A stretch of DNA of 64,000 bases. It comes from a virus. The first letter of the stretch is position 1. Every line of letters begins with the position of its first letter. The stretch lies in the IMG/VR virus record IMGVR_UViG_3300038673_000670. The stretch is one strand, 5' to 3'. The position numbers were made by a program. Shown piece after piece: positions 57,001 through 60,000 of the stretch.

Positions 57001-60000
57001 CTCACTGACGTCTTAGGCATGACTCCATCGGAAGCCGATCAAGGGCGGCGGGCCATCTCGAAGAAGAAGCTGGATAAGATGCAAGCCCTTGAGGAGCGGC
57101 TTAGCGTGCAGCTCTCCAACCCGGATCTAAAGAAGCTCTGGGATGAAATCATAAACTGGGCTGGCTACGGGCTCAACAGGTCTCACGCCGTATGTTACGC
57201 CTGGCTCTCGATGGTGACGGCCTACCTCAAGCTCTACGAGACGAGCGCCTTCTATGCCGCTCTCCTCAACCGAGAACCGGACTCTATGAAACAGAGGGAT
57301 ATCCTCAGAGAGGCGAAGCGGCTTAACATAACGGTGATCCCTCCGAGAGTCTCGGAGGGGGATATCCCGCCCCTAAAATGCAGAGGGAGCGGTGATATCC
57401 TGGAACTAGGGCTCACAACCATCAAGGGCATAGGCGACACCACCGGCCTTAAGCTCATCGAGAAACTCGAAAGTGGAGCCCCTCTAACCAAGGCGAAAAA
57501 GGCTCTCCTTACCGCCGCCGGGTGCTTTGGCGGCCAGGTCCCCATAGAGAACTACGGACTCATCCCATCGGCCAACTACGATATGCGATTTATAGACCAC
57601 AGGATGAACTCTAAAGCACCTCACGCCCTGGATGAACTCGCCAGCCTTCAGGAAGGGCAATACGGGGCGTGCCGAGGGATCATTTCGCTTGTGAAGGGTA
57701 AGGGGGTTTACTTCGAGGATAATTCTAAGGTCGTTAGAGTCAGAACAAAGGCTTTAGAACTGGTTAACGGCTCTGTATCTGATGCTATCGTATTTCGAGG
57801 GCAAAACGACCAATATTATCTCCTCTTTACCTCCCATAGCACCGGGAAGCCCCTTAGAAAGGATGAGTACCGTATCGGATGGTTAGCCGGGCCTACACTC
57901 TCGAAGAGCGGGAACTACTATTATCGGGTGATCGCCTTCAATCCCTCTGACGGGGCCTATGAGTGTATTATCATGGGAGATGAGCGGGTAATCCTTCGAT
58001 GGGGCCAGGTTATAGACCGGGTTAAGTTCTCAGGCGATAAGGTCTTCCTGAGGTTCGGCGAGGACGATCTCAAGATAAGGGACATCTTTAAAGGCCAGTC
58101 CCCGGCGGCCCTGGTGGAGGCTTACGCCATGGAGGACGACGTAGAGGTTAGAGTCGAAGAGGCGAAGCTCTCATCGGCGACACCTGAGGAGGACGACGAG
58201 GGCGCAACCTGCGAAGAGGAGGAGACTCAAGAGCCCGAAGTTGAAAAAGGAGAGTAACTATGGACGAAAGCTTGAAAGAAACAATAGGGAGGTGGATATC
58301 CAAGGCCCTTTATAAAATAGGGCTCTTGGACGCCACCCTCTCTTATACCCTGGAGTGCTGTGAATGTTGCCGGGCCTTCCCGGAAAACCTGAAGTATATT
58401 CCATGTGACGAGGCCCTTCATGCAGACCCCTTAATCGACTACTGGGATGGCCCCTATTGCCCCGTCTGTGGCCCGAAGAAAGAGGCCCGGATTCTCAGGC
58501 TTGAGACAGCTCATAAGCTTAATCGGTCTTCCCTAAGAAAGGACTTCACCTCTTCCTATCGCTTTCCTCCAGATGGGAAAATTACCGTTGGGCTCCCTGG
58601 ACCTGAGGAGGGCGAGAGCGGGCGGGCTCGTATCGACTACGAGGAGGAGCGATGAAGCCAGTTCGCGACGCCTCCCAGATCGGCATTAAGGAGAAAGGGC
58701 TCTCTTCCAAGTACATAGACCACATACGGCCTATGGGTTTTAGAGTCATGTCCAAGCTGGTTTATGACTCAGGAACAGGCAGGCCCGCCACATTTGAGCG
58801 GGTTGAGCTGGTGGATAATGGCCGGGTGTACCTCGTCGCTAAGCACCTGGTCATAAAGAACCCTTCAAGCGAAAAGCTTAAAACCACAGGGCCTAAGTAA
58901 GGGGTGTCCTCTCCTGGGGACACGGGGAGGCTCAGGGTTCCGTTAGCCGGTATCGCCCCCTAAGCCTCCCTACTTGTACCCCTACATTCTAATCACTCTG
59001 TCAGTGATCCGGGCGGGATCGGTGGCCCTTTGTCATAGGGCCGGGCCTTCGTCAAAGGCCAACCGAAAAGATAGGAGGTCGTCGGGTCTTAAGCCCGACG
59101 GCTTACCAATCGCCTTTTATACCATCTTCGCCAATAATGGTTTTGTACTACGCTATCCATCGCCGCGACAGGCGAGCCACCCCTTCATAGTGGGGGTGGT
59201 CTCCGTTGGAGGTGCTCAACATGCCTTTAAGATCCATACCCGAATCCGAAAAACCAGCACCGGCTGACACCTTCGCTTTTACCTTCCCCGAAGGAAACTT
59301 CGCCGACTGGCTCGATAGGTCAAATTTGAATAAACACGGCCTGCGAACCCTGGAGCACGTCTTAAACAGGCAATTAAATAACAAGGCTAGATAATAATAC
59401 TATTTTCCGTCCTCTTTGACAGAAACTAACCCTCGAAACTTCGAGCCTTACCCTCTGTGGAGGCCCTGAGAAATTAAGGCTCGAAGTTTCGAGGGTTAAT
59501 TTCTGTGGAGGCCCTGAGAAACTAACCCTCGAAACTTCGAGCCTTACCCTCTGTGGAGGCCTTGAGAAACTAACCCTCGAAACTTCGAGCCTTACCCTCT
59601 GTGGAGGCCCTGAGAAATTAGGGCTCGAAACTTCGAGCCTTACCCTCTGTGGAGGCCTTGAGAAATTAGGGATCGAAGTTTCAAGGGTTAATTTCTGTGA
59701 GGTCCCTGAGAAATTAGGGCTCGAAGTTTCAAGGGTTAATTTCTGTCGGGGCTCGGCTTAAATAAGATCGATTCTAGTTTAGGTTATTTTTATAACGTAT
59801 TGACAGAAAATAACCGCTATTAAATCCGGGCTTATTTTCTCTCTCGTTTTAAAGAAAGTAATCGCATTTATATTGCTCATTATATCTACGATTGCCAAAC
59901 AGAAACTAAACAAGACTATATAAGCCCTTATATCTGTCGATATGCCTCAGATTATAAGACCGCTTATAAGCTGCCTTCCGGACTCTCTCCTCCTATTAGG

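Follow-up and report, generated by a model that had tools for sequence, protein, structure and literature searches.

Tandem arrays of palindromic binding sites are familiar from several systems, and these form the background to the locus studied here, an array of seven near-palindromic 48-bp units in IMG/VR virus record IMGVR_UViG_3300038673_000670, of which a stretch of 64,000 nucleotides (hereafter the window) was analysed. Baculovirus homologous regions (hrs) are tandem direct repeats with an imperfect palindrome of ~30 bp that is bound by a dimeric viral protein, and they serve as enhancers and candidate origins. The sopC site of the F plasmid (12 x 43 bp) and the family of repeats (FR) of Epstein-Barr virus (EBV; about 20 x 30 bp) carry a dyad-symmetric dimer site in each unit and vary in copy number between isolates. 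In P4, a D5-like primase-helicase binds ori and crr sites that face either way, and the lambda origin combines iterons with an AT-rich region. Finally, bacterial interspersed mosaic elements (BIMEs) are clusters of ~35-bp repetitive extragenic palindromic (REP) sequences in alternating orientation with short linkers between them; REPs are scattered over a host genome in hundreds of copies and rely on RAYT transposases.

By analogy, the array appears closest in architecture to baculovirus hrs, to F sopC and EBV FR, and to the origin repeats of lambda and P4. Like the hrs, it consists of tandem direct repeats with an imperfect palindrome in each, but the hrs are several dispersed loci of insect viruses, whereas the array is one locus of a tailed and probably archaeal virus that has no IE-1 homologue, and the sequences show no similarity. 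With sopC and EBV FR it shares tandem repeats that each carry a dyad-symmetric site, in the array a candidate one. Those elements function in episome partition or tethering and lie beside the genes of their binding proteins (sopAB, EBNA1); here, a Pfam search of ~70 open reading frames (ORFs) in the window and contig L020, on which the domain-based negatives below rest, found no partition genes. As in the lambda and P4 origins, dyad-symmetric repeats adjoin an AT-rich stretch in a replication gene block. The lambda iterons, however, are four repeats of 18-19 bp inside the initiator gene, whereas the array has 7 (+5) intergenic 48-bp units of variable copy number, which are candidate sites. BIMEs are also tandem imperfect palindromes of ~35 bp in mixed orientation, but the array motif is unique to one viral locus. 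A search of its 24-nt core in 185,579 species genomes returned one chance palindrome, in Sphingobacterium, and no host source of REP or CRISPR repeats, so that a captured host REP or BIME was rejected.

In archaeal oriC, origin recognition box (ORB) elements flank an AT-rich unwinding element in inverted orientation, beside cdc6/orc1 (PMC4010727). Both oriC and the array combine an AT-rich region with conserved repeats, some of them inverted, and the host here is probably archaeal. Nevertheless, the array is not an ORB/Cdc6 origin of this kind (PMC4010727): it has no neighbouring cdc6, and its AT tract is not flanked by repeats on both sides. The ORFs tested yielded no Cdc6/Orc1/AAA+ initiator domain, nor was an ORB-like consensus established. 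Since tandem palindromic arrays are familiar, the array as such is a modest surprise; its interest lies in the documented inversion of a unit and in its location, which makes it a candidate for the origin or control region of an unusual, probable methanogen virus.

Anatomy of the 48-bp array

An earlier reading of the window made from its sequence alone (the sequence-only reading) had described seven 48-bp palindromic units that flip orientation. Direct reading, Tandem Repeats Finder (TRF) and a register table confirm this and place the array at 59421-59756. Each unit is composed of a 36-bp near-palindrome and a 12-bp linker, GTGGAGGCC(C/T)TG, and the units are arranged head-to-tail:

59421..59756, no strand: homogenised array, 7 x 48 bp (direct reading, TRF, register table, unitig support)
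59421..59456, + strand: unit 1, 'forward' (inverted) type (register table)
59469..59504, + strand: unit 2, 'reverse' (putatively ancestral) type (register table; orientation of all units in L002 and L011)
59517-59552 and 59565-59600: unit 3 and unit 4, copies identical to unit 1 (register table)
59613..59648, + strand: unit 5, chimera (sequence reading, register table)
59661-59696 and 59709-59744: units 6 and 7, reverse type, 1-2 substitutions each (register table)

TRF recovers the array with a period of 48 (6.4 copies, 84% matches, score 384) and with a period of 96 (score 446), and it finds no second comparable tandem array in the rest of the 64 kb. The core TCGAARYTTCRAG occurs 12 times, counting both strands and against an expectation of 0.01, and all occurrences lie within the array. 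The consensus of the units is a dyad in which 18 nt holding CTCGAA..TTCGAG are framed by the outer arms AGAAAyTAA and TTArTTTCT.

Units 2, 6 and 7 had been read as essentially the reverse complement of units 1, 3 and 4. This is exact for the inner 18 nt, where the forward type shows 0 mismatches to the reverse complement of the reverse type and 6 in direct comparison. It does not extend to the right outer arm, which in the forward units is TTACCCTCT where TTAATTTCT would be expected of a full reverse complement. Of all 36 positions in the register table, 11 separate the forward unit from the reverse consensus and 5 from the reverse complement of that consensus. The description of unit 5 as a hybrid of a reverse left arm and a forward right arm is borne out by the register table. 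Its left arm is reverse-type, its centre, right arm and linker are forward-type, and its inner part is a perfect 8+8 palindrome; the linker variant CCTTG and the right half are the same as in unit 3. All 12-bp linkers of the array keep a single direction, and GACAGAA (59418-59424) and the inverted TTCTGTC (59741-59747) bracket it, both as the sequence-only reading had noted. A CRISPR, mini-CRISPR or Racr-like array was rejected, as all linkers have the same sequence and no host repeat matches, and a repeat protein was rejected because there are stops in all frames.

To this anatomy we compared Logan unitigs (k=31) from two bioreactor metagenome runs, X1 and X2. The X1 unitigs (depth ~136-225) show zero differences from the window and bridge junctions 1-2-3, 3-4, 4-5 and 5-6; the X2 pieces, among those listed, match it exactly. 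At the k=31 level this rules out misassembly, which the sequence-only reading had named as a possible refutation. The orientations are truly mixed, and the copy number could be slightly off by a repeat block. In X1, 13 contigs share one common arrangement, and 12 of them are alike to 99% or more. The two deep runs yielded no unitigs in another orientation, with the limit that contigs drop rare variants. A minor X1 unitig of 61 nt over units 6-7 (59691-59746) differs by one base and has a depth of 53 against 172 (~30%), which points to a coexisting array variant in one sample.

Assemblies of other samples from short reads are interrupted exactly at the array. Such breaks, together with the habit of small terminases to bind repeated and sometimes inverted sites, might suggest a packaging (pac/cos) site, as the sequence-only reading had considered, or a physical genome end. 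The breaks are, however, explained by the repeat itself, and region depth is ~166-172x in one run and 109-113x in the other, equal on the two flanks of the array (166 vs 172; 109 vs 113). Moreover, no terminase-sized gene lies within ~10 kb, and by our own estimate the structural module begins ~17 kb away in a genome of ~74 kb. A packaging locus is thus highly improbable.

Inversion and multiplication of a unit

Contigs from five other samples have this locus, and the array is present in every lineage seen, in at least 6 samples. In a sister lineage (L002, L003, L011 and L013) the flanks are ~96.6% identical to the window and the array is at the same place. L002 has 5 units and L011 has 8, all of them 'reverse', with the linker GTGAAGGCCCTG. 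In a third lineage (L015-L018), whose downstream proteins are ~83% identical, the end of the array is the same reverse-type unit. Copy number among close strains is 5, 7 or 8, and flipped units are found only in the lineage of the window. A nucleotide search of the region against GenBank phages gave no match, and IMG/VR scans returned none for the two-unit pattern, for relatives of the 523-aa protein encoded downstream or for the D5-like protein. As more distant relatives (see below) have no comparable array near the polymerase, the element is judged to be lineage-specific.

The six inner differences of the forward units fall on exactly the six asymmetric positions, and each is a change to the base of the complementary strand. 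By our calculation, six independent random substitutions would produce such a pattern with a chance of ~7e-8. As all inner differences lie at asymmetric positions and are changed to the complement, the unit is truly inverted. The three forward units are identical down to a right-arm change, ATT>CCC, that is private to them, which makes them copies of one inverted unit. Unit 5 shares both the right half of unit 3 and its CCTTG linker and is accordingly a crossover product, or the product of a template switch that homogenised its arms. As the sequence-only reading had argued, simple direct duplication is not enough to account for the pattern: the arrays of the sister strains are uniform, the inner inversion is exact and unit 5 is recombinant.

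We propose that in the ancestral state all units had the reverse orientation. A single unit would then have been inverted in place, either via polymerase template switching or via recombination between its own inverted arms. The inverted copy, marked by ATT>CCC, would have been multiplied by unequal crossover, and one crossover between a reverse and a forward unit may have given rise to the chimeric unit 5. The mixed orientation would in that case be a historical accident and not a mechanism. Template switching between imperfect inverted repeats has been documented, with homogenised arms and an inverted spacer as its outcome (PMC8604942). The likeness to this process lies in the arms of unit 5, which are homogenised to a perfect palindrome, and in the inverted spacers of the forward units. 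It is a mutational process rather than a functional system, and in the window its product would have been amplified in a tandem array. Template switching would be the simplest mechanism for the flips and would make a dedicated recombinase unnecessary; no serine or tyrosine recombinase was found among the ~70 ORFs.

Alternatively, the inversion could be programmed, with units as sites that a site-specific recombinase flips in place between switchable states. The mixed orientation and the chimeric unit would agree with this, and the 9-bp inverted arms of each unit could be crossover sites. The flipped units are, however, clonal from one event, all other strains are uniform, the 13 X1 contigs agree on one arrangement and no recombinase domain was detected; the TnpB of the sister strains (see below) is an RNA-guided nuclease and not an invertase. 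We consider programmed inversion extremely unlikely. The proposal of in-place inversion or crossover made in the sequence-only reading thus stands in so far as both events took place, but the clonal flipped units, the missing recombinase and the single arrangement do not agree with active flipping. The same reading had called for a comparison with relatives and had listed a fixed pattern from one ancestral inverted duplication as an outcome that would overturn its interpretation, and the identical flipped units, copies of one inverted unit, correspond to that outcome. No sign of ongoing flipping was seen; one old inversion and unequal crossover are enough. The strain comparison provides a clean natural case of the in-place inversion of a near-palindromic unit, followed by its amplification inside a tandem array.

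The DNA directly upstream of the array also differs between strains:

58996..59416, no strand: variable segment upstream of the array (strain comparison)

In the sister strains (L002:14775-16023; L011 and L003 alike), a 1.25-kb insertion sequence (IS) is inserted at window position 58996, ~60-420 bp upstream of the array, and the window is without it. The IS carries a TnpB gene alone (377 aa, OrfB_IS605 and Cas12f1-like_TNB domains), and its target is a small hairpin, ATCACT..AGTGAT. Its ends show no similarity to the array units, and a derivation of the array from the ends of an IS605-family element was rejected on this ground. Conversely, a 355-bp segment of the window (59061-59416) is missing from the L002/L011 lineage, with AAGGCC microhomology to the array linker at the junction. 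This segment contains an ORF of 57 aa (59221-59394) after a GGAGGTG ribosome-binding site and is also found, with 4 differences, in wastewater run X5.

A phased element next to the AT minimum

The array lies within a 1.29-kb intergenic gap between the last ORF of the polymerase operon, which ends at 58900, and the next operon, which starts at 60188. Downstream of the seven homogenised units, the gap contains:

59757..59996, no strand: units 8-12, five older and diverged units that keep the 48-bp register (repeat family and register table)
59761..59960, no strand: lowest-GC 200-bp stretch of the 64-kb window (31% vs mean 52%, sd 4.8)
59997..60187, + strand: proximal leader/promoter region of the downstream operon (TTAAATA and TATAAG boxes; GGAGG before ATG)

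In total, 12 phased 48-bp units (7 homogenised and ~5 diverged) form an element of ~576 bp. The left arm AGAAAnTAA is exact in units 9-11, at 59805, 59853 and 59901, which is 8, 9 and 10 periods past unit 1; the right arm is looser than the left. Of the 13 matches to the left-arm 9-mer AGAAANTAA in 64 kb (2.2 expected), 11 lie between 59421 and 59909. The inner sequences of units 8-12 are wholly different from those of the array and have TA-rich centres resembling TATA or TTATAAG (TTTATATT, CTATATAAG, CTTATAAG). Repeat units occupy the AT tract and the DNA upstream of it, and none were found beyond 59996.

Units 8-12 are conserved in L002, L011, L013 and L015. Between lineages, the arms of units 9-11 change at 2/54 positions and the inner parts at 9/54. 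From unit 8 to the start codon the window is 88.9% identical to L015 (92.7% over the leader 59997..60187), compared with 89.4% for the gene of the 152-aa protein that follows and 84.3% for the gene of the 523-aa protein. That the gap is as conserved as the former and more conserved than the latter argues for purifying selection on a non-coding element. The continued 48-bp register through units 8-12 and the conserved gap are new relative to the sequence-only reading.

Based on this anatomy, the uniform sister arrays, the copy-number variation, the conservation and the AT minimum, we tend, with the balance about even, to read the array as the young homogenised part of a ~576-bp cis element of dyad-symmetric protein-binding sites, indifferent to orientation, that would act as an origin or a regulatory platform. 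In favour of this are the strict phasing, the place in the replication gene block with the polymerase upstream and the primase-helicase downstream, and the adjoining AT minimum. The conserved symmetric positions, AGAAAyTA ... CTCGAA .. TTCGAG ... TArTTTCT, fit an array of sites for a dimeric protein. Each dyad-symmetric unit would most likely be bound by a symmetric (dimeric) DNA-binding protein, and at a symmetric site for a dimer the orientation of the unit does not matter. The flipped version is present at 109-172x depth in two runs; flips are thus tolerated, as expected of symmetric sites, and imply that the function of the element is independent of unit polarity.

Within this reading, the most probable role, held tentatively, would be that of a replication origin in which iterons adjoin an unwinding region and either the D5-like primase-helicase or a neighbouring ORFan is the candidate initiator; an origin beside the AT-rich tract had also been suggested in the sequence-only reading. 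As in iteron origins, the repeats are clustered and non-coding and have an AT-rich region beside them, which here also carries promoter-like TTATAAG boxes. Ranked next is an upstream regulatory platform of the downstream operon, which we hold to be on the unlikely side. In its most specific form, the 12-unit element may be the origin of a methanogen-virus lineage with a family-C polymerase and a D5-like helicase, its candidate initiator being an ORFan (152-aa or 523/813-aa) or the D5-like primase-helicase, possibly with the histone; this we put forward with considerable reserve. If true, this would give the tailed viruses of methanogens their first defined origin architecture, one in which iteron orientation is free to flip since loading is symmetric. 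By our account, no cis-acting replication or control element has yet been defined for these viruses. The group unites a bacterial-type replicase, a D5-like primase-helicase and a histone, and a conserved phased array by an AT minimum is an obvious place to seek an origin or master control region and its binding protein.

Several observations weigh against a binding-site element of this kind, and against an origin in particular. The right outer arm is lost in 4/7 window units, so the right arm is not essential in every unit. The distant relatives L005-L009 (polymerase 33-37% identical), in which gene order differs, show nothing comparable to the array in the ~8 kb next to the polymerase. GC skew tracks gene direction and shows no shift at the array. 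The AT tract has TTATAAG boxes like other promoter regions of the virus and is thus maybe a promoter cluster rather than an unwinding element. The adjacent ORFans have no recognisable DNA-binding domain (Pfam; PHROGs, no families), and the AlphaFold2 model of the 152-aa protein, with a predicted local distance difference test (pLDDT) score of 47, is unusable. High homogeneity and variable copy number, finally, also fit a neutral minisatellite.

Such a minisatellite would be functionless and would expand, contract and sometimes invert by slippage and template switching. This agrees with the 5, 7 or 8 copies in near-identical strains and their homogenised units, with unit variants that degrade the palindrome without compensation, and with an upstream neighbourhood that tolerates both the IS insertion and the 355-bp indel. 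On the other hand, the array stands at the same place in every lineage found, including the one with ~83%-identical neighbouring proteins, the register and the arm motif survive in the diverged units, and the gap is conserved like its coding neighbours. We therefore regard a neutral minisatellite as rather improbable.

Instead of binding a protein, the palindromes could act through their own structure, as DNA cruciforms or as RNA hairpins, serving for instance as terminators, as a nuclease target or as a structured transcript. In single-stranded DNA, the reverse-type units have folding energies of -7.5 to -9.3 kcal/mol (z about -5), a forward unit beside a reverse unit gives a ~31-bp stem of -34 kcal/mol, and a terminator-like scan returned 7 matches where 2.1 were expected. 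Stability is, however, not conserved, as the forward unit reaches -3.3 and unit 6 only -2.1 kcal/mol (range -2.1 to -9.3). There are 0 compensatory pairs among 8 distinct units, the variants break pairs and pairing is no better than in shuffles. Rfam scores reached 26 bits at best, where the gathering threshold was 98, with nothing but far sub-threshold miRNA look-alikes, and the two-base centre is unable to form a loop unless the stem opens. With this spread of energies and these broken pairs, the cruciform-forming role proposed in the sequence-only reading is unsupported, and a structure-based element is quite unlikely.

The architecture would also match a centromere-like partition or tethering site of an episomal provirus, of the F sopC or EBV family-of-repeats type, closely: tandem repeats of 40-50 bp with a palindromic site and variable copy number. 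Yet no ParA/ParB-type, integrase or lysogeny gene was found in the ~70 ORFs, and the virus, with a replicase of its own, NrdD, ThyA, dCMP deaminase and glutaredoxin, looks virulent from its genes, which makes this explanation very doubtful.

Two further observations concern the AT tract and the leader. Boxes of the (G)TTATAAG type recur every 10-11 bp at the portal promoter (6727-6807), to either side of the PD-(D/E)XK nuclease gene (51037-51090, 51770-51840) and in the diverged units 10-12 (59850-59970). They are probably a common promoter or regulator motif of the virus; a sigma-70 promoter scan remained at chance level. The stretch 60060-60140, in the conserved 190 bp before the 152-aa gene, holds inverted repeats rich in G and C (GGGGTTTACCC; CCCCCAGAGG..GGGCC..CCCC) and, on the minus strand, a single terminator-like hairpin, and may be a structured leader or small RNA.

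Neighbouring genes and probable host

The window belongs to a tailed virus, probably of a methanogenic archaeon. Its structural genes encode a portal, a MuF-like head protein, a protease, a sheath, a tape measure and baseplate proteins, and its replication and nucleotide block includes an SNF2-type helicase, a PD-(D/E)XK nuclease, NrdD, ThyA, dCMP deaminase and glutaredoxin. The best named relative of the replicase is that of Methanobacterium virus PhiF1, at 29% identity, and the runs holding the virus come from bioreactors, anaerobic digesters, wastewater, sludge and landfill. The genes on the two sides of the array are:

54223..58257, + strand: UDG-PHP-PolIII-alpha replicase, upstream operon, whose end is ~0.5 kb from the array (domain search)
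60188..62214, + strand: ORFans of 152 aa and 523 aa that open the downstream operon (candidate array binders on grounds of position)
63531..63806, + strand: histone-fold gene, downstream operon (domain search)
L020:4382-6970 (~64017-66605, outside the window): D5_N/DUF5906 primase-helicase, 862 aa, directly after the histone gene

The downstream operon runs from the 152-aa ORFan over the 523-aa ORFan and small ORFs to the histone and then, beyond the window end, to the primase-helicase, which lies 4.3 kb downstream of the array. It is followed by a BhlA-holin-like ORF at L020:7668-8015. A histone-positioning array, a speculative idea, was rejected because 48 bp is mismatched to the 30-bp dimer step.

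The neighbouring ORFans have almost no homologues among 1.8 to 5.8 billion proteins; word-indexed searches gave 2-3 close relatives, and an exhaustive HMMER search with the 523-aa ORFan returned two matches, the protein itself and one 99-aa fragment. Comparison of the neighbouring proteins with the Atlas yielded a sub-threshold topoisomerase-IA lead (0.84) and no match for the 152-aa protein. The 523-aa ORFan (60643-62214) has 813 aa in an 83%-identical relative (L015:896-3337) and 750 aa in a 44%-identical one, and the copy in the window is without ~290 C-terminal codons, through deletion or truncation.

Elsewhere in the window, NrdD (41429-44812, minus strand; 1127 aa by our own ORF call, 1105 aa on L004) contains an intein with a LAGLIDADG endonuclease. 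The NrdD of L002 (1-575) has 765 aa and no intein domains listed, indicating that the intein is polymorphic for presence and absence.

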